A DNA stretch of 63,467 nucleotides, counting the filler. It is 6 parts of 6 records of this genome, joined end to end, with 100 filler letters (N's around TTAATTAATTAA, not from the genome) between each part and the next. Parts side by side here need not be neighbours in the genome. Positions count along the whole stretch, not along the records: positions 9,379 to 16,544 come from SRR31156797_8796; 5 more parts are not named here. One strand, given 5' to 3'. Below the pieces are notes generated by a model, which worked only from the letters and a program-made list of their open reading frames with translations, ran no database searches and was not told the origin of the DNA. Positions 6,929 through 17,184 of the stretch are shown here, one piece after another (the first letter of the stretch is position 1; every line of letters starts with the position of its first letter). The translations under genes and the position numbers were made by a program.

Positions 6929-7167
6929 TTTTACTCCCTTATAATTTTTTTAATCCTCACTCTCTCTTTTGTCCTGATTTTTAAAAAATTTAACTTTATC
7001 TAACTATTATAGTTTACTTTGCCGCATGTGTCAAAGGTTTATTTTAAATTGTTTTTTGCTGATTTTGTGTCATAGGGAAAATTTAAAATAATTTAATTGA
7101 CGGGTTCAACTAATATGCTGTTTGGTTTACAGTGTAAGTATTTTTTTTAATAAATCAGTATATTATG

Positions 7168-7204
7168 ATTGAGGAGATTAACTTTTGATGTTAATCTCCT
7201 CAAT
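7168..7204 (-). terminator. Hairpin downstream of the NCS2 permease, probable terminator
   Basis: Perfect 15-bp arms ATTGAGGAGATTAAC / GTTAATCTCCTCAAT, 20 nt after the stop codon. Confidence 0.6.
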
Positions 7205-7224
7205 TATAGTTTATTATATTTATA

Positions 7225-8541
7225 CTAAATCATTAAATTTATAAAGCAAAGTACACCTATAAACCATAACATAGGATTTACTTTTTTATGATCACCTGTT
7301 CCGACATGTACAATTATATAAGTCAGGAATCCGAAACTAAGACCAATACTTATACTATATGTTAGCGGCATTAATAACAGTGTTACAAATACCGGAATTG
7401 CTTCTTTGAAATCACGAAGATTAATATCAACTATATTTTTGAACATATATACTCCAACTATAATAAGTGCAGGAGATGTTGCAAATGACGGGATTACACC
7501 TATAATCGGTGTAAAAAACATCGCTAATAGGAAAAATAATCCTATAAATAGTGATGCCAACCCTGTTCTGGCTCCAGCTGCAATTCCAGCTGCTGTTTCA
7601 GACAGAGTTGTCACAGTACTTGTACCAAGTAATGAACCTAGAATAGTAGAAGTAACATCTGTATGAAGCATCTTCCCAAGGGACTTAACTTCTCCACTCT
7701 CTTCTTCCAATCCGATCTCTTTCGCACATGCGATAAGTGTCCCTAGTGAATCAAACAAGTCAACGAACATAAATGAGAAAATAGGGCCTAATAGTGATAT
7801 TTTCATTGCTCCTAAAATATCGAGTTTAAATGCAATCGGACTGATACTTGGTGGCATAGAGATAAGTGCTGTAGGTCTCTGTACAATTCCAGTGAATACA
7901 CCGATAATTGTTGCTACGAACATTCCTATGATTATTCCACCTTTTACTCCTCTGATCTCTAGGATAAAACTAACAACTAGTCCTAATAATCCTAAAATTA
8001 CAGGTAGAGTAAACTCTCCTAAAGAAACCAAAGTAGCAGGATTAGCTACAACTAAACCAAGTGATTTTAATCCGATAAAGGCCATAAATAATCCAATTCC
8101 GGCTGTTACAGCTACTTTAAGTGATTGCGGAATTGCATTTGCGATTCTTTCTCTGATTCCACCAATTGACAGTAATAAGAAGAATACTCCTGATAAAAAC
8201 ACAACACCAAGTGCTGTTTCCCATGCTAATCCCTCACCTAAAACAAGAGTATATGTGAAAAATGCATTTAATCCCATTCCCGGAGCTAGTCCTAATGGTG
8301 CGTTTGCCCAGAATGCTGAGATTAAACTACCGATAATTGCAACTAAACATGTTACTGTGATAAGAGCACCTTTATCCATACCTGTAGCTGATAAGATGCT
8401 AGGGTGTACAAAGATGATATATGCCATTGTTAAAAAAGTTGTTAGTCCTCCGACGAACTCTTGTTTAACACTTGTACCTCTCTCTTCCAACTTAAATAGA
8501 CGATTTAATAAACTGTTGTTTCCGACTCTTGTTGCTTCCAT
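7225..8541 (-). CDS. NCS2/AzgA-family purine (guanine/hypoxanthine) permease
   Basis: GLTTFLTMAYIIFV, APGMGLNAFF, DLFDSLGTL, GARTGL motifs; start moved to ATG 8541 behind an AGAGGAGG RBS; purine riboswitch upstream. Confidence 0.93.
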   Translation of the reverse strand: MEATRVGNNSLLNRLFKLEERGTSVKQEFVGGLTTFLTMAYIIFVHPSILSATGMDKGALITVTCLVAIIGSLISAFWANAPLGLAPGMGLNAFFTYTLVLGEGLAWETALGVVFLSGVFFLLLSIGGIRERIANAIPQSLKVAVTAGIGLFMAFIGLKSLGLVVANPATLVSLGEFTLPVILGLLGLVVSFILEIRGVKGGIIIGMFVATIIGVFTGIVQRPTALISMPPSISPIAFKLDILGAMKISLLGPIFSFMFVDLFDSLGTLIACAKEIGLEEESGEVKSLGKMLHTDVTSTILGSLLGTSTVTTLSETAAGIAAGARTGLASLFIGLFFLLAMFFTPIIGVIPSFATSPALIIVGVYMFKNIVDINLRDFKEAIPVFVTLLLMPLTYSISIGLSFGFLTYIIVHVGTGDHKKVNPMLWFIGVLCFINLMI

Positions 8542-12288: not shown

Positions 12289-12316
12289 ATCGAAACGTTT
12301 GCGCAAACGTTTCGAT
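12289..12316. promoter_or_regulatory. Tandem RbsR/LacI-type operator
   Basis: Perfect 28-bp palindrome ATCGAAACGTTTGCGCAAACGTTTCGAT containing two AAACGTTT cores, 60 nt upstream of rbsD. Confidence 0.85.
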
Positions 12317-12544
12317 GGCGATAACAATACACATCTGTGACGGCTTGATTTGCTTGAAAAAAAACCAAAAAACACTTTTGAAAATTGAACTACACTCATT
12401 CAAAAGTAAAAAATGATCCCATGAAAGCAGTGTGAAAACCGGGGGAAATACGATTGATTTGATTCATGCGAATTGCCTCCGTAAAGAAAGGATACAAGGG
12501 AAACGATGTGCGGCTCCCATACCGCGACACCGGGAGGAACAATC

Positions 12545-13324
12545 ATGGATTCTTTCAATTACGAAATACACGAATACAAAGCGGGCTTTGCTCGGACACC
12601 AATCAAGTCCATCCGTGAGGTACCGCTGACAATTCACCTCAACGGAAAAGAAGTCGTGACATTGCTGTGCACGGCCAAGCATCCTGAATATTTGGCTATA
12701 GGCTTTCTCAAATCCGACGCATTCCTATCCAGCCCGGACCAGATCACGGATTTGACAGTCCGTGACGAAGGCGACCGTCTGCTGGCGGAAGTGGAAACCT
12801 GTCACGACCCGTGGAAAAATCGTATTCTGGAACGCTCCATCACCTCCGGTTGTGGCAAAGGCACTAACTTCGGACGCAATACGGCCACGATTTCCAAACG
12901 TCGTGTAAATGGTGATGTCAAAGTCACTCCTGAACAAATTCTCTCGCTGGCAAAGCAACTGCACGAACGTTCCACCTTGTACAACGCCACGCGCGGTTGT
13001 CACAATTCCTCTCTGTGCACCCCAGACGAAATGCTGCTTTTCCGAGAAGATATAGGGCGTCACAACGCCATCGACATGATCTGCGGCCAGTGTTTTCTGG
13101 ACGACGTCTCCGTGGATGACAAACTCATCGTCTCCACCGGTCGCATCGCCTCGGAAATCCTGCTCAAGGTTATCCGCATCGGCGTGCCCATCCTCGCCTC
13201 CACAGCCGTCGCCACAAGTTTTTCCGTAGAACTTGCACGCAAAACCGGCATCACCCTCATTGGCAACATCAAGGACGATAGCTTCTGGGTCTATAATGAT
13301 AACAAACGAATCATCGGTTTTTAA
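12545..13324 (+). CDS. fdhD: Formate dehydrogenase accessory sulfurtransferase
   Basis: EVPLTIHLNG, TSGCG, TRGCH, EDIGRHNAID motifs; GGAGG RBS before ATG 12545. Confidence 0.93.
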   Translation: MDSFNYEIHEYKAGFARTPIKSIREVPLTIHLNGKEVVTLLCTAKHPEYLAIGFLKSDAFLSSPDQITDLTVRDEGDRLLAEVETCHDPWKNRILERSITSGCGKGTNFGRNTATISKRRVNGDVKVTPEQILSLAKQLHERSTLYNATRGCHNSSLCTPDEMLLFREDIGRHNAIDMICGQCFLDDVSVDDKLIVSTGRIASEILLKVIRIGVPILASTAVATSFSVELARKTGITLIGNIKDDSFWVYNDNKRIIGF

Positions 13325-13405
13325 AAACATCAAACCAACGTCTGTAATAAAAACAACTCACAACAACTTGCCAGGACGTCGCAATCAGTGCCTGTTTTTC
13401 TCGAA

Positions 13406-13420
13406 ATAGGGTAAATCTAT
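13406..13420. promoter_or_regulatory. Candidate LysR-type binding site upstream of fdhE
   Basis: ATAG-N7-CTAT (T-N11-A dyad). Confidence 0.35.
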
Positions 13421-13651
13421 AGAAACATCGCCTTTCTATCGACTTTTTTCACATCTTCGGAACATACTGAATTGTAGACCTTTTTAGCTCGCTTTATGCT
13501 CAAAAAGACATAATTTCTTTAAAAATTTATCCTTCTATTTCGAATAGATGTGCATTTCTTGTGTCAAAGCTTGAGTAAGTTTCAAGCCTTTGGCATCATA
13601 GACAGGCGCCCATACTGTTTTTCGTAACCGAACAATCAAAAAGGACGCACC

Positions 13652-14539
13652 ATGGAATTTAATGTGGAACAATATCAACGGCGGCTTGAAAAGAAGATCA
13701 CCCAGTTGAAAGGCAAGTCCTATATTTCCGAGGAACTCGTGAACTTGCTGGCCGACGTGGCTCGACTGCAGTTGACGGCGCGCATTGACGCAACCGTGGT
13801 GCTGCCGGACGACAGTGAACTGGCCCCGCCGGAAGCTGTGTTTCAGGGCATGTCTCTAATCGGACGCGAAATGTTTCCCCACGACAGCGCTCAGGCCGCG
13901 AATCTCCTGCTTGATCTTATCGCCCTGCTTGAAAAGACCGGCGGTCCTTTGGGCGATGGAGCCAAGATTGTGGCCAAAGCCATGGAAGACGGCGAATTCT
14001 CTCCTGCGGAGTTATTCGACAAATTCCTTAATGACGACACGAAATTCTTTGCTTCCTGGGCTGAACGGACACCGGATGCACCCAAAACCATTGCATTCCT
14101 TGCCTTTGCATCGCTTGGCCCGTCCATCGAAGCTGCGGCCGATATTCTGGCCGGAAAGTTGCCGGAAATGAAGGTACCGGAAGTAGGCACCTGCCCCATC
14201 TGTGGTAGCCTGCCGCTCATCTCCTCTCTCAAAGAGAAAGAAGGATACCGTCACGCCACCTGTTCGTTCTGTCGTCATGAGTACAGGATAAAACGCATTG
14301 CCTGCCCGGTCTGTGGTGAAGACGACCAGAAAAAGCTGACATTCTTTACCGTGGATGAAGAACCGGGATTCCGCGTGGACGTCTGTGAATCCTGCAAGAC
14401 CTATATCAAGACCATTGACTTTCGAAATCTGGACCGTGTAGCCGTACCTGTTCTTGATGATCTGGATTCTTTGGCGCTTGACTATGTTGCTGCAGGTCAG
14501 GGATACAAGCGCGCAACGCTTTCTGCTTGGGGATTCTAA
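13652..14539 (+). CDS. fdhE: Formate dehydrogenase maturation protein
   Basis: CPICG, CSFC, CPVCG and CESCKTYIK Cys pairs; C-terminal DDLDSLALD. Confidence 0.93.
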   Translation: MEFNVEQYQRRLEKKITQLKGKSYISEELVNLLADVARLQLTARIDATVVLPDDSELAPPEAVFQGMSLIGREMFPHDSAQAANLLLDLIALLEKTGGPLGDGAKIVAKAMEDGEFSPAELFDKFLNDDTKFFASWAERTPDAPKTIAFLAFASLGPSIEAAADILAGKLPEMKVPEVGTCPICGSLPLISSLKEKEGYRHATCSFCRHEYRIKRIACPVCGEDDQKKLTFFTVDEEPGFRVDVCESCKTYIKTIDFRNLDRVAVPVLDDLDSLALDYVAAGQGYKRATLSAWGF

Positions 14540-14552
14540 CAAAGAGGTGACC

Positions 14553-15482
14553 ATGTCAGCCTTAAACTCAAACATCATGCACAAGACATCGCATATCATA
14601 CCCGCAGACTGTGCGCCGGACATTGCCGGTGGATTCAATGCGCTCCTGCATGACGACAAAAAAGCACGGGACTACCTGCTTGAGTTGACATGGCCCACAG
14701 GCGATCCTTTCTGCCCAAGATGTGGTCACCGCAAAGTCTACACTCTGTCCGGCGAACGACTTCGGTGTGCCAGTTGCAAATACACCTTCCAGCCATTTTC
14801 CGGTCGGTGGATCAACAATGGCGCACTCAGTCCTTCCGAATGGCTCCGACTTATCGTCCTGTTCGTGCAGGAATGTTCGGTTCATCAGATGAAGGATCAA
14901 CTCGGACTGTCGTATAATACTGTATATAAAGCCCTGACCGCCATCAGGTTCGCCATCCTCGGCCACGCGCTGGATGCACGGCAGCTCATCAGCTCGGCAA
15001 CCGGACTTGATTCATATCTTAAAGGCAACCGACTGACTGGTGGCCCGCGGGATATGCACATGGACACTATCCCGGTCTACGGCATCCTGCGCCGTGACGA
15101 CATTGTCTTCATCGACCTTGTGCCGGGTTTTCAAGCAGAAACACTGTTCCACTTCCACATGAACTTTCACCTGAAGCTCATTCGTACCGGCAATCTCGTC
15201 TACACGGACAGATACAAGGATTACGACACGCTCATTTTCTGTGGCAACGATTCACTCCCTTACGAGATCATCCGCCGCTATGACGAACCACCGCACATCG
15301 ACGCGGTGCATGACGAATTCTGGGACTATGCCCAATCCCGAATCAAGAAATTTCGCGGTATATCCTGCCAACGATTTCCTCTCTATATGAAGGAACTCGA
15401 ATTCCGATTCAACAACCGTGATAAATCCATCGCCGAAATACTGGCCGCGTACCTATGCGCACTGGTGCCCACACAGGAATAA
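14553..15482 (+). CDS. IS1595 (ISXO2/IS1016-like) transposase-derived protein, possibly domesticated
   Basis: Zn ribbon CPRCG...CASCKYTF, HTH-like LGLSYNTV, PVYGIL, VYTD, KFRGI...ELEFRFNNR; AGAGG RBS; ATG 13 nt after the fdhE stop. Confidence 0.8.
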   Translation: MSALNSNIMHKTSHIIPADCAPDIAGGFNALLHDDKKARDYLLELTWPTGDPFCPRCGHRKVYTLSGERLRCASCKYTFQPFSGRWINNGALSPSEWLRLIVLFVQECSVHQMKDQLGLSYNTVYKALTAIRFAILGHALDARQLISSATGLDSYLKGNRLTGGPRDMHMDTIPVYGILRRDDIVFIDLVPGFQAETLFHFHMNFHLKLIRTGNLVYTDRYKDYDTLIFCGNDSLPYEIIRRYDEPPHIDAVHDEFWDYAQSRIKKFRGISCQRFPLYMKELEFRFNNRDKSIAEILAAYLCALVPTQE

Positions 15483-15682
15483 AGCCCTTTTGGTGTTAAA
15501 CCATGGGGCAGATATCATTTTATGTCCATTTTGACATAAAGCATTAATCTTTATTTCAACCACTTACGTAAAACCCCTTCTAATGGGGCTGTGTGAAAGT
15601 CGGTAAAAGACCGATTCTTTTGAACTGTTCTCTCCAATCCCCCATAACAGGGATAACGGAATTAACTGGGAGAGGTACGCTT

Positions 15683-15913
15683 ATGCGTTTTTCACACAAC
15701 CATTCGTCGGCTGCAAACGCGACAAGTCCAATGCCCTTCGGCGGCCTTGGATTTGCCACGGACAGTGTCCATGCGGCGGCGCAGGGAATGATCCTGACAC
15801 CTCTCTGTCATTACGACAGATCAGGAACCAACCTGCCCGCCCCGGACCAAATCACGCAGCCAAGCGGCTATGAGTTACTCGTGACTTTAGGTTGCGAGAT
15901 TCGCGGGCGATGA
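15683..15913 (+). CDS. Small hypothetical protein (76 aa) directly upstream of fdhA
   Basis: GGAGAGG RBS before ATG; ends 25 nt before the fdhA start. Confidence 0.5.
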   Translation: MRFSHNHSSAANATSPMPFGGLGFATDSVHAAAQGMILTPLCHYDRSGTNLPAPDQITQPSGYELLVTLGCEIRGR

Positions 15914-15938
15914 CCCGCACTCAACTTTAGGAGGTCGA

Positions 15939-16544
15939 ATGCATACTAACCGAAGGAACTTCCTCAAGCTCTCCGCTGTCGCGGCCACGGCCACGGCTTT
16001 TGGCGGACTCGGGCTTGGCTGTACAGCGAAAAAGGCACCCATTGCCGATCGCGCCGAAGCCATGAAGCCCAAGTGGAGCAAACAGACAACGACTATCTGC
16101 TGCTACTGTGCAGTGGGTTGCGGTCTCGTCGTCAACACATCCCTCAAGGACAAGCGGGCCATCAACGTCGAAGGTGACCCGGATCATCCCATCAATGAAG
16201 GTTCTCTGTGTGCCAAGGGCGCATCCATCTGGCAGTTGGCTGAAAATGACCGCCGCCCGGATTCCGTCCTGTACAGAGCTCCCTATTCCAAAGAATTCAC
16301 CAAAGTCTCCTTGAGCTGGGCACTGGAAAAAATCGCCCACAACGTCAAGAAAAGCCGTGACGAAACTTTCACCTACAAGAATGCGAAAGGCCAAGTGGTC
16401 AATCGCTGCGACGGTATCGCTTCAGTCGGTTCCGCCGCTCTCGACAACGAGGAGTGCTGGGCTTACCAGACGATGCTCCGCAGCCTTGGTCTGGTGTATG
16501 TGGAACACCAGGCTCGTATTTGACACAGCGCAACTGTTGCGGCT
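15939..16544 (+). CDS. fdhA: Periplasmic Mo/W formate dehydrogenase alpha subunit, selenocysteine-containing (3' truncated)
   Basis: Tat signal NRRNFLK; CCYCAVGC and LCAKG 4Fe-4S motif; in-frame TGA at 16521-16523 in HQARI-U-HSATVAA, the Sec ligand position. Confidence 0.95.
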
Positions 16545-16644
16545 NNNNNNNNNNNNNNNNNNNNNNNNNNNNNNNNNNNNNNNNNNNNTTAATTAATTAA
16601 NNNNNNNNNNNNNNNNNNNNNNNNNNNNNNNNNNNNNNNNNNNN
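16545..16644. other. Artificial contig spacer
   Basis: 100-nt N run with TTAATTAATTAA. Confidence 0.98.
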
Positions 16645-17184
16645 TTTGGTAAACCCCAGGTCAATGACATTGCCCTCCCTGTAGGCGCTCATTCCGTATG
16701 CCTGCATCATCCAGACCCCTAATTTTGAAGACAATAGCCTGAGGCCAAAAGTCAGTTTTACATTCAAAAAATTAGGCAGGGGAAACATGGCCAGAGAAAG
16801 GCAGATAGGAAACCAGACCGTTTTCAGCCGCTCCATGCCCCCATAAATCCAACACAATCCCACGGCAACCATCCAAAAAGAGAGGTAAAGCATGAAATAC
16901 TCTCCGGCCAACTCCCCTATCCAAAAAAGGCTGATTCCCGGAATTAAAAGGAGGAACCCCTGCCATTCCGCTCTGCCCGGTTTTGAAAAAAAAACCGTCT
17001 TCCTCTCCCAGAGCAGGTATAAAACGATAAAGGGCATGAGCATGCCGTGGGAATAATCATCCCTTGTCCAGTCATGACGGACGAGGTATTCCAATGGTGA
17101 ATAATAAATCCCGAGGCAGATCATCCCCAGTACAAAAGGCAGGATACTCCGCCCATCCAAGTATCGTTTTATCTTAAAAATCAT
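16645..17184 (-). CDS. Exosortase (XrtD/EpsH-like), 3' truncated
   Basis: W-x-x-DDYSHG, MFPLP, REGNVIDLG motifs; ATGA overlap with the upstream stop. Confidence 0.85.

Follow-up and report, generated by a model that had tools for sequence, protein, structure and literature searches.

An intact open reading frame (ORF) at positions 14553 to 15482 (plus strand) of a 63,467-nt stretch of joined contigs, referred to below as the window, encodes a homologue of IS1595-type transposases and lies between fdhE and fdhA in a gene cluster for formate dehydrogenase (FDH). Comparative analysis indicated with high confidence that this gene, here designated tnpL, is a domesticated, fixed host gene and not a mobile element. 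This conclusion was based on several lines of evidence: the gene occurs as a single copy, is syntenic with fdhA, fdhE and molybdenum cofactor (Moco) genes throughout the order, has a tree that follows genera and is under purifying selection; its catalytic motifs are eroded, and no pair of terminal inverted repeats (TIRs) flanks it. Conserved motifs in the intergenic regions of the cluster further suggested that the transposase and its own TIR have probably been co-opted together, as transcription factor and operator, for fdhE and fdhAB.

The initial annotation of this DNA, made from the letters alone, had described an intact ORF with its own ribosome-binding site (RBS) 13 nt past the fdhE stop codon. 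The tnpL ATG at 14553, its stop codon at 15480-15482, the fdhE stop codon at 14537-14539 and a purine-rich RBS in the 13-nt gap were all confirmed. Its assignment of the gene to an FDH cluster also held, with fdhD, fdhE and the N-terminus of fdhA identified around tnpL. All genes from fdhD through fdhA, to the left of a linker between contigs, share the plus strand. The main features are:

12506..13324, plus strand: fdhD, encoding a sulfurtransferase for the FDH cofactor (Pfam FdhD-NarQ, E 3.1e-69)
13325-13651: intergenic region of 327 nt between fdhD and fdhE
13558..13600, plus strand: TIR-derived element A, consisting of unit 1 (13558-13579) followed by a second, partly palindromic unit
13652..14539, plus strand: fdhE, encoding an FDH accessory protein (Pfam FdhE_central and FdhE_C; TIGR01562 E 7.5e-24, under its cut-off)
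14553..15482, plus strand: tnpL, encoding an IS1595-type transposase homologue of 309 amino acids (P0001), very probably domesticated
14652..14786, plus strand: zinc ribbon, residues 34-78 (Pfam PF12760; C54, C57, C72 and C75 invariant)
14814..14972, plus strand: predicted three-helix helix-turn-helix (HTH) domain, approximately residues 88-140 (alignments, AlphaFold2 helices, weak fold matches)
15009..15413, plus strand: degenerate DDE/RNase-H-like domain, residues 153-287 (D153 at 15009-15011, D219 at 15207-15209, A251 at 15303-15305)
15462..15483, plus strand: 3' end of tnpL, comprising the C-terminal LVP... codons and the stop; degenerate, at the position homologous to the ancestral right TIR (matrix score 14.3)
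15483-15682: intergenic region of 200 nt between tnpL and a small ORF
15490..15511, plus strand: TIR-derived site B, a weaker copy, between the tnpL stop and palindrome B and 8 nt from each
15939..16545, plus strand: N-terminus of fdhA, with a twin-arginine translocation (Tat) signal, an Fe4S4 domain and a selenocysteine (Sec) TGA codon at 16521-16523 (Pfam)

By its domains, TnpL belongs to the IS1595 protein superfamily. Residues 34-78 matched Zn_ribbon_IS1595 (PF12760; E 1e-12, 48.2 bits against a gathering threshold of 25.4) and residues 153-287 matched DDE_Tnp_IS1595 (PF12762; E 2.2e-16, 60.6 bits against a threshold of 27). These were the only two families found by Pfam in TnpL, in which no HTH_1, Mop or integrase-like DNA-binding domain was detected. 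With the NCBIfam model for IS1595 transposases (NF033547), the protein scored 54.4 bits, under the curated cut-off of 75. An AlphaFold2 model (predicted local distance difference test score, pLDDT, 92.5; predicted template modelling score, pTM, 0.90) contained helices at residues 94-105, 110-117 and 121-137, so that residues 88-140 are modelled as a three-helix HTH, for which fold matches were weak. Foldseek found no match between this model and PDB entries at E ≤ 0.001. In a wide VIA-align search the top Z-score was 4.7, and the matches with Z 4.0-4.7 were confined to approximately residues 88-140 and corresponded to homeodomain-like HTHs, including the Tc3 and SETMAR transposase domains. The catalytic domain matched no solved structure in VIA-align, a result that does not by itself indicate a new fold.

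In the alignments, the predicted DNA-binding parts, zinc ribbon and HTH, are the best-conserved parts of TnpL. The four cysteines C54, C57, C72 and C75, together with R132 and E281, were present in 119 of 119 aligned sequences. Among 25 aligned orthologues, S120, N122, K126, A127 and R132 and a C-terminal KELEFRxN were invariant; of these five HTH residues, only R132 was also invariant across the wider 119-sequence alignment. The peptides GLDSY, VYTD, DAVHDEFW and ELEFRFN were all present in the TnpL translation. Pfam and the alignments agreed with the initial view that zinc ribbon, HTH and the C-terminal FRFN are kept.

The catalytic site told a different story. When TnpL was aligned with bona fide relatives, its triad positions were occupied by D153, D219 and A251, of which the first two are surviving triad residues. 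A251 replaces the canonical asparagine, S154 replaces the glutamate of the canonical 'DE' and D254 replaces the glutamate of 'NGxEGFW'. The third triad column was sensitive to the alignment, with one MAFFT run placing it one residue off, and its position was therefore fixed by counting back from a near-invariant tryptophan. The earlier claim of eroded catalytic motifs was thus borne out at residues 154, 251 and 254, but slightly overstated the loss at the first aspartate, since D153 and D219 survive. Among 79 genome loci, the first position was D in 27 and the second D in 64, while a canonical N occurred in only one. This sole exception (L079, from a Desulfobacteraceae bin) is a real insertion sequence (IS) with both full TIRs and is basal in the tree.

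A contrast set of 80 loci on metagenome contigs, obtained by a scan with ten distant relatives, encoded proteins 33-49% identical to TnpL. No fdhA, fdhE or fdhD was found nearby in any of these 80 loci, many of which are on contigs of 1.1-1.4 kb. An intact D-D-N/H triad within canonical motifs was present in 68 of them, and in 38 a TIR pair bounded an element of approximately 890-920 bp. Loci L105-L175 of this set, together with L079, represent a widespread, compact IS family of approximately 900 bp whose right TIR extends over the stop codon of the transposase and so includes its last codons (LVP...). A second zinc-ribbon IS1595 lineage (L096-L104, also on metagenome contigs) has lost the first aspartate (N, G, K or E in its place) and mostly kept the second aspartate and the asparagine; none of its loci is FDH-linked, and it may be another decayed or domesticated branch. 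Around tnpL itself, no flanking inverted TIR pair was found. In this respect the initial annotation was correct, but it overlooked single TIR-derived sites at 13558-13579 and 15490-15511. As judged by curated cut-off, catalytic motifs, TIR pair and copy number, TnpL fails every test for a functional IS.

A word-indexed homologue search yielded 251 sequences at E ≤ 0.001 among 806 candidates. Among the 120 that were listed, all named ones were from Desulfovibrionales, and most were labelled 'transposase' ('IS1595 family transposase' or 'DDE transposase'). Identity to TnpL decreased stepwise from 80-98% in Pseudodesulfovibrio, via approximately 69% in Paucidesulfovibrio and 60% in Salidesulfovibrio, to approximately 50-56% in Maridesulfovibrio, Oleidesulfovibrio, Desulfovibrio and Desulfocurvus. 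A match at E ≤ 1e-10 occurred in 196 of 301 sampled Desulfovibrionales genomes, mostly with one or two per genome. The window contained one tnpL copy, and each of five complete genomes (G001-G005) contained exactly one high-scoring copy.

Genuine mobile relatives behaved differently. One Pseudodesulfovibrio genome carried approximately nine copies of two genuine small IS1595-family elements, whose proteins were only approximately 28% identical to TnpL. Elements of this kind (L081-L084 and L086; genomes G001 and G002) are 728-761 bp long and have no zinc ribbon; their copies are 99.2-99.6% identical and have clear TIRs.

A scan of contigs from one genome per species found 323 relatives, and the analysis of gene order and the counts of genome loci rest on the 80 loci kept of these. 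Sixty-nine of the 80 loci had at least 1.5 kb of downstream sequence, and in 48 of these 69 an fdhA N-terminus (at least 55% identical) was located 314-986 nt downstream on the same strand. In the other direction, 67 loci had sufficient upstream sequence, and 38 of them carried fdhE there on the same strand.

A maximum-likelihood tree of 78 sequences, rooted on true IS proteins, grouped TnpL homologues by genus. Genus labels changed 13 times on this tree, as compared with a mean of 30.5 for shuffled labels, and none of 200 shuffles gave a value as low. Maridesulfovibrio received 100% support, and the TnpL of the window fell within a starred Pseudodesulfovibrio clade. Ratios of nonsynonymous to synonymous substitution rates (dN/dS), calculated pairwise by the Nei-Gojobori method for 12-13 Pseudodesulfovibrio-like loci, had medians of 0.229 for tnpL, 0.248 for fdhD, 0.302 for fdhE and 0.175 for the fdhA N-terminus. 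Pairs that included the tnpL of the window gave values of 0.04-0.11, which are rough since dS exceeded 1.5 and was saturated. The initial annotation had proposed that an exapted transposase should be recognizable from its synteny with fdhE and fdhA, single-copy status, dN/dS, congruence of its tree with taxonomy and alignment of its DDE residues. On each of these points the outcome was as expected for such a gene: fdhA and fdhE were conserved neighbours, one orthologue was present per complete genome, selection on tnpL resembled that on fdhD and fdhE, the tree was genus-congruent and the triad was not intact at its third position. Together with the decay of the motifs, these results strongly support domestication.

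Evidence for an operator came from a directional 22-nt motif that emerged from spacers between tnpL and the small ORF across genera; an initial k-mer enrichment had been dominated by coding sequence. With a position weight matrix (PWM) for this motif, the best match in the entire window was at 13558-13579, in the fdhD-fdhE intergenic region (score 28.1), followed by the 3' end of tnpL (score 14.3). Matches on the C-terminal codons of tnpL were initially considered a confounding factor; this interpretation was dropped, as these positions are the homologue of the right TIR. A reading of the motif as a sigma-54 promoter was also rejected, because the spacing between GG and GC exceeds that of such promoters by one base and neither dinucleotide occurs in site A. 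In relatives, sites orthologous to site B had PWM scores of 17-29. Sites A and B are in the same orientation and both lack the TIR tip. By direct alignment, site A of the window is identical to an active right TIR at 18 of 20 inner positions, with the tip replaced.

Two sequence models were used in reciprocal searches: R1, made from host sites only, and R2, made from 54 IS TIR arms only. Over 318 kb of metagenomic IS loci, R1 gave 12 matches (E 0.0012-0.091), all of which were at element termini: matches at the right end, where TIR and transposase stop codon overlap, were on the plus strand, and those at the left end were on the minus strand. Conversely, R2 gave 20 matches over 1.01 Mb of Desulfovibrionales loci. 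Two of these were the full TIRs of L079, and the 18 host matches comprised 12 on the plus strand approximately 75-130 nt 5' of fdhE, one on the minus strand 5' of fdhE, three at or after the 3' end of tnpL and two 5' of tnpL. Seventeen of the 18 host matches stopped by position 25 of the 29 in the model and none reached position 26, which indicated that all 18 host sites lack the cleaved tip. At the level of sequence, these searches demonstrate that the 22-nt host motif is homologous to the inner part of IS1595-type TIRs.

In complete genomes, R1 gave two matches at E ≤ 10 in G001, two in G002, three in G003 (Halodesulfovibrio) and one in G004 (Nitratidesulfovibrio). Seven of these eight matches were at FDH/tnpL loci, the exception being one weak stray match in G003. 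All matches in G001 and G002 were at fdhE and fdhA promoters, and one of them, at a displaced fdhA promoter in G002, was outside the training set. Halodesulfovibrio had two tandem matches directly after tnpL and Nitratidesulfovibrio had one after tnpL. In an alignment of the fdhE upstream region from 10 loci, 13560-13599 was the most conserved stretch of 40 nt (mean column agreement 0.88 and 0.84, versus 0.47-0.77 in other bins). Since synonymous sites are saturated between the genomes in this footprint, its conservation argues for a function and not for a decaying fossil.

A second element, a 20-bp palindrome of the type TTATGYC-N6-GRCATAA, adjoins the TIR-derived sites in both intergenic regions:

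13494..13513: palindrome A, a ModE-like molybdenum/tungsten (Mo/W) box of this type, 5' of fdhE; at the same position in relatives
15520..15539: palindrome B, a ModE-like Mo/W box, 5' of the small ORF and fdhA
15683..15913, plus strand: conserved small ORF of 76 amino acids directly 5' of fdhA (conservation by tblastn)

These two sites were the only exact matches in the window. Pseudodesulfovibrio relatives have the palindrome at equivalent positions. It accompanies fdhA where this gene has moved away from tnpL, and it is lineage-restricted. Genome-wide, six sites were found in G001 (reversed-pattern control, 0) and four in G002 (control, 2). Five of the six palindromes in G001 adjoin Mo/W-related genes: the tnpL-adjacent fdhA, a second FDH that is interrupted by Sec and has a ModE-N-like gene in front of it, another molybdopterin oxidoreductase, an operon for an aldehyde oxidoreductase and a gene for a TupA-like binding protein; the sixth is flanked by DUF169 and Usp genes. 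In G002, two of the four palindromes were at FDH genes and the other two had no clear link. The sites outline a candidate Mo/W regulon in Pseudodesulfovibrio that comprises three molybdopterin oxidoreductase/FDH operons, the aldehyde oxidoreductase operon, the TupA-like gene and the fdhE operon. The 22-nt motif was absent from the other palindrome-bearing Mo/W promoters.

The palindrome was the first candidate for a TnpL site and was later downgraded in favour of a ModE-type binder. ModE-N-only genes were present in two copies in each of the five genomes, so that their presence or absence cannot discriminate between the two, and a ModE-N gene was located directly behind a palindrome in L088. 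According to a published account, the ModE consensus shares the N6 spacing and resembles the palindrome in its half-site, the site in G. sulfurreducens contains the same heptamer, and Desulfovibrio species encode proteins that consist of the ModE DNA-binding domain only, for which that paper describes the sensing mechanism as unknown (PMC545781). Based on this likeness and on the ModE-N genes in all five genomes, the palindrome is probably a Mo/W box that is bound by ModE-N rather than by TnpL. ModE-N-only genes at L088:3177-3569, L045:7072-7410 and L085:6276-6650 are immediately 5' of FDH-type genes, and in L045 and L085 the gene sits between the FDH-type gene and tnpL or its paralogue, which hints at a functional pairing of ModE-N and TnpL. 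An 8-nt word in the TIR of one IS1595 type also occurs in the palindrome's right half (L001, L002), which may be due to chance.

The invariant DNA-binding parts and the TIR-derived sites, which occur in both intergenic regions that the initial annotation had singled out, lend specific support to its proposal of a DNA-binding regulator; nothing was found that speaks for the maturation factor that it had offered as an alternative. In the sequence of events that would account for these observations, an ancestor of the order acquired, beside its FDH genes, a compact IS1595-type element of approximately 900 bp. The catalytic motifs of the transposase, the left end of the element and the tips of its TIRs would then have been lost, while the inner, protein-binding TIR word was retained, as were the zinc ribbon and the HTH, which would once have recognised the transposon end. 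This word, sometimes duplicated and in the same orientation, would now be situated in the promoter regions of the fdhE-tnpL and small ORF-fdhAB operons. By binding to these predicted sites, TnpL would act as a locus-specific factor that autoregulates its own expression along with fdhE and controls the periplasmic W/Mo-selenocysteine FDH. The role of TnpL as their binder is inferred from the homology of the cis motif and from its location. At both promoters, the site adjoins the Mo/W palindrome that would mark a wider regulon and is probably read by a ModE-N-type protein. As a guess at the direction of control, the site approximately 55-95 nt ahead of the fdhE ATG may serve autorepression, and the one at fdhAB, upstream of the Mo/W box, may serve activation or co-regulation.

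It is quite possible, as a more tentative extension, that the pair of transcription factor and operator was domesticated together early in Desulfovibrionales and has since controlled the W/Mo-Sec FDH operon and fdhE, and that the family, which has paralogues next to further FDH operons, might be the regulator that has been missing for the switch between W- and Mo-dependent FDH isoenzymes in Desulfovibrio. One such paralogue, 36% identical to tnpL, is located in Nitratidesulfovibrio G004 (L085, approximately 7048-7866) and is divergent from a second molybdopterin oxidoreductase and an FdhB-like gene. Neither motif model gave a match at this locus, which implies that the DNA target of the paralogue, if any, has diverged.

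Several observations weigh against the interpretation of TnpL and the TIR-derived sites as a regulatory pair at FDH operons. In 21 of the 69 loci, fdhA was not directly downstream of tnpL. Neighbours at 14 of these 21 loci were scanned against Pfam (57 ORFs): several loci still adjoin Moco genes, in the form of fdhD-moeA-fdhE, mobB-moeA, a MobA-like gene or a more distant molybdopterin oxidoreductase; in Maridesulfovibrio, tnpL follows fdhD-fdhE-moaA(-like) genes with no adjoining fdhA; others lie next to genes for a periplasmic binding protein, a histidine kinase and a receiver-STAS protein; and L049, L078 and L079 had no related neighbours. Maridesulfovibrio G005 carries tnpL, yet showed no R1 match. 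R1 was trained on sites from or near the genomes searched, and matches to trained sites are expected by construction, so that the informative parts of its result are the near-absence of matches elsewhere in 4-Mb genomes and the untrained site in G002. Site B of the window is weak with both models, scoring below 14 with the host PWM. R2 assigned only 3.6 bits to site A of the window (E 7.7; rank 19 of 22), probably because the window has a T where all 54 training arms have a C. The strong motif statistics thus come from close relatives and the host-trained model, and the motif could instead belong to a promoter or be recognised by a different protein. A formal D-D-E/D triad was present in 8 of 119 aligned homologues and in 5 of 79 genome loci, where the third column was shifted by one residue; with D153 and D219 kept in TnpL and D250 beside the third position, residual chemistry is conceivable.

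Expression data from D. vulgaris bear on the same point. In one preprint, DVU0586-0588 are treated as the fdh1 operon (bioRxiv 10.1101/2022.01.18.476765), and a biofilm study lists DVU0586 as strongly induced and DVU0585 as not induced (PMC3431258). By gene order only, DVU0586 is the putative equivalent of the small ORF and DVU0585 the putative tnpL homologue, which would therefore not be co-induced with fdh in that biofilm study.

Domesticated TnpL might instead act through protein contacts, as a maturation or assembly factor for FDH that interacts with FdhE, FdhD, the product of the small ORF or the Tat signal of FdhA, with the TIR-like motif as a promoter element or the site of another regulator. 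Co-transcription with fdhE across a gap of 13 nt, the frequent location beside moeA, mobB or moaA, and the situation in Maridesulfovibrio, in which a tnpL behind fdhD-fdhE-moaA has neither an adjoining fdhA nor an R1 match, are all consistent with such a role. We nevertheless consider it unlikely: invariant residues cluster in the zinc ribbon and HTH, the binding site of the ancestral transposase is the homologue of the conserved cis motif, seven of whose eight genome-wide matches are at these promoters, and Pfam and NCBIfam detected no chaperone-like family in TnpL. If, alternatively, TnpL bound the 20-bp palindrome, it would regulate Mo/W enzymes globally and not be confined to one locus. 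The presence of the palindrome in both intergenic regions of the window, its Mo/W-related neighbours in G001 (the sixth site being unclear) against a control count of zero, and the 8 nt shared by its right half and the TIR of one IS1595 subgroup would fit. This possibility appears decidedly unlikely in view of the resemblance of half-site and N6 spacing to the published ModE box and the identical heptamer in the G. sulfurreducens ModE site (PMC545781), and of the ModE-N-only genes in all five genomes, one of them directly behind such a palindrome in L088. Furthermore, the palindrome is lineage-restricted, whereas the HTH residues of TnpL are invariant among 25 orthologues across the order.

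Retention of nuclease or recombinase chemistry, by which TnpL would rearrange DNA between TIR-like sites of the same orientation in an excision or phase-variation switch, is very improbable. Two directly oriented TIR-derived sites do bracket fdhE-tnpL and D153 and D219 are kept, but the triad is not conserved across orthologues, cleaved TIR tips are gone from all 18 host sites and the genes keep their order from genus to genus. That an ordinary IS1595 element, still active or only recently dead, landed in the FDH cluster by chance is what database names and above-threshold Pfam domains would suggest at first sight; single-copy occurrence, order-wide orthology and synteny, purifying selection, eroded motifs and the absence of a TIR pair refute this explanation, to which we assign next to no probability. 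Co-option of the transposase and its TIR as regulator and operator is thus retained as the preferred interpretation.

TnpL shares the order of zinc ribbon, HTH, RNase-H-like DDE domain and C-terminal ELEFRxN with those IS1595 transposases that have a zinc ribbon, to which it is 33-49% identical, and the inner part of the TIR of IS1595 elements is homologous to the host cis motif. Active IS1595 elements differ in having tipped TIR pairs with the right TIR over the stop codon, canonical catalytic motifs and no link with FDH, whereas tnpL is single-copy and syntenic, without the canonical asparagine or a TIR pair. Merlin is reported to be the eukaryotic relative of IS1595. ModE resembles the tnpL locus in that it regulates Mo/W genes and in that the palindrome beside the TIR-derived sites resembles a ModE box; TnpL, without an HTH_1 or Mop domain, is not a member of the ModE family.

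For eukaryotes, there is ample documentation of transposases that were exapted as regulators; in the bacterial literature, this is a rare and recent subject. TunR is reportedly a tungstate-responsive regulator of sulfate reducers that derives from XerC/XerD recombinases. It would be similar to TnpL in that the fold of a recombination enzyme was recruited as a transcription factor in the same bacteria and in the same area of Mo/W homeostasis. It differs in its tyrosine recombinase origin and Mop-type oxyanion-binding domains, as opposed to a DDE origin and no recognisable sensor domain in TnpL, and unlike in TunR, the candidate operator of TnpL derives from the element's own TIR. TldR proteins are TnpB-derived, RNA-guided transcriptional repressors of bacteria. 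They also represent a transposon nuclease that was turned into a host regulator without catalysis; they are guided by RNA and belong to the RuvC/TnpB lineage, whereas TnpL would use protein-DNA recognition inherited from TIR binding. In SETMAR and the Hsmar1 TIRs (PDB 7s03 was among the weak fold matches), a DNA-binding domain was kept and TIR remnants serve as its sites, as is proposed here for TnpL. Cases of the SETMAR type differ in being eukaryotic, from other superfamilies and with many dispersed sites, as compared with two dedicated promoters in a bacterial operon for TnpL.

To our knowledge, there is no case of a DDE-type IS with an operator traceable to the element's own TIR. A search of full-text literature, thin on subscription journals, found no account of the tnpL family, no bacterial regulator derived from IS1595, no mention of transposase genes within the FDH clusters of Desulfovibrio and no bacterial domesticated-transposase transcription factor with an inverted-repeat operator; the neighbours of fdhAB are not mentioned in the G20 fitness paper. 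In hundreds of genomes tnpL is annotated as 'IS1595 family transposase' or 'DDE transposase', which conceals it when regulons and pan-genomes are analysed. The periplasmic FdhAB of Desulfovibrio is the benchmark enzyme for reduction of CO2. For the question of what controls its expression and the selection of W or Mo isoenzymes, TnpL and its predicted sites provide a named candidate protein and defined DNA, by which this question becomes directly testable.

The small ORF between tnpL and fdhA has its own RBS and matched no Pfam or NCBIfam family. It was found at the equivalent position in 43 of 80 loci across the order (tblastn, E ≤ 0.05), including the majority of those linked to FDH, and stays with fdhA where fdhA is displaced (L006). 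An Rfam search of 12300-16545 gave no match at E ≤ 1, and a scan for sigma-70 promoters and terminators gave none above shuffled sequences. A further conserved island in the alignment of the fdhE leader, at 13460-13481 in the window and 5' of palindrome A (mean column agreement 0.77), may be a promoter. Loci L016, L043, L046, L006 and L030 are flanked by genes for a Peripla_BP_6 protein, a histidine kinase (sCache_3_2, PAS) and a receiver-STAS regulator without a DNA-binding domain; this trio adjoins tnpL in several genera and could be the sensory input of the locus.

The end of the FDH cluster in the window is an assembly effect and not biology, since fdhA is interrupted, 22 nt past its Sec codon, by a linker that joins contigs at 16546-16645 and consists of two N-runs flanking a short spacer with stops in six frames. 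Beyond this linker lies an unrelated cluster of exosortase, WecG and heparinase-II/III genes on the minus strand.

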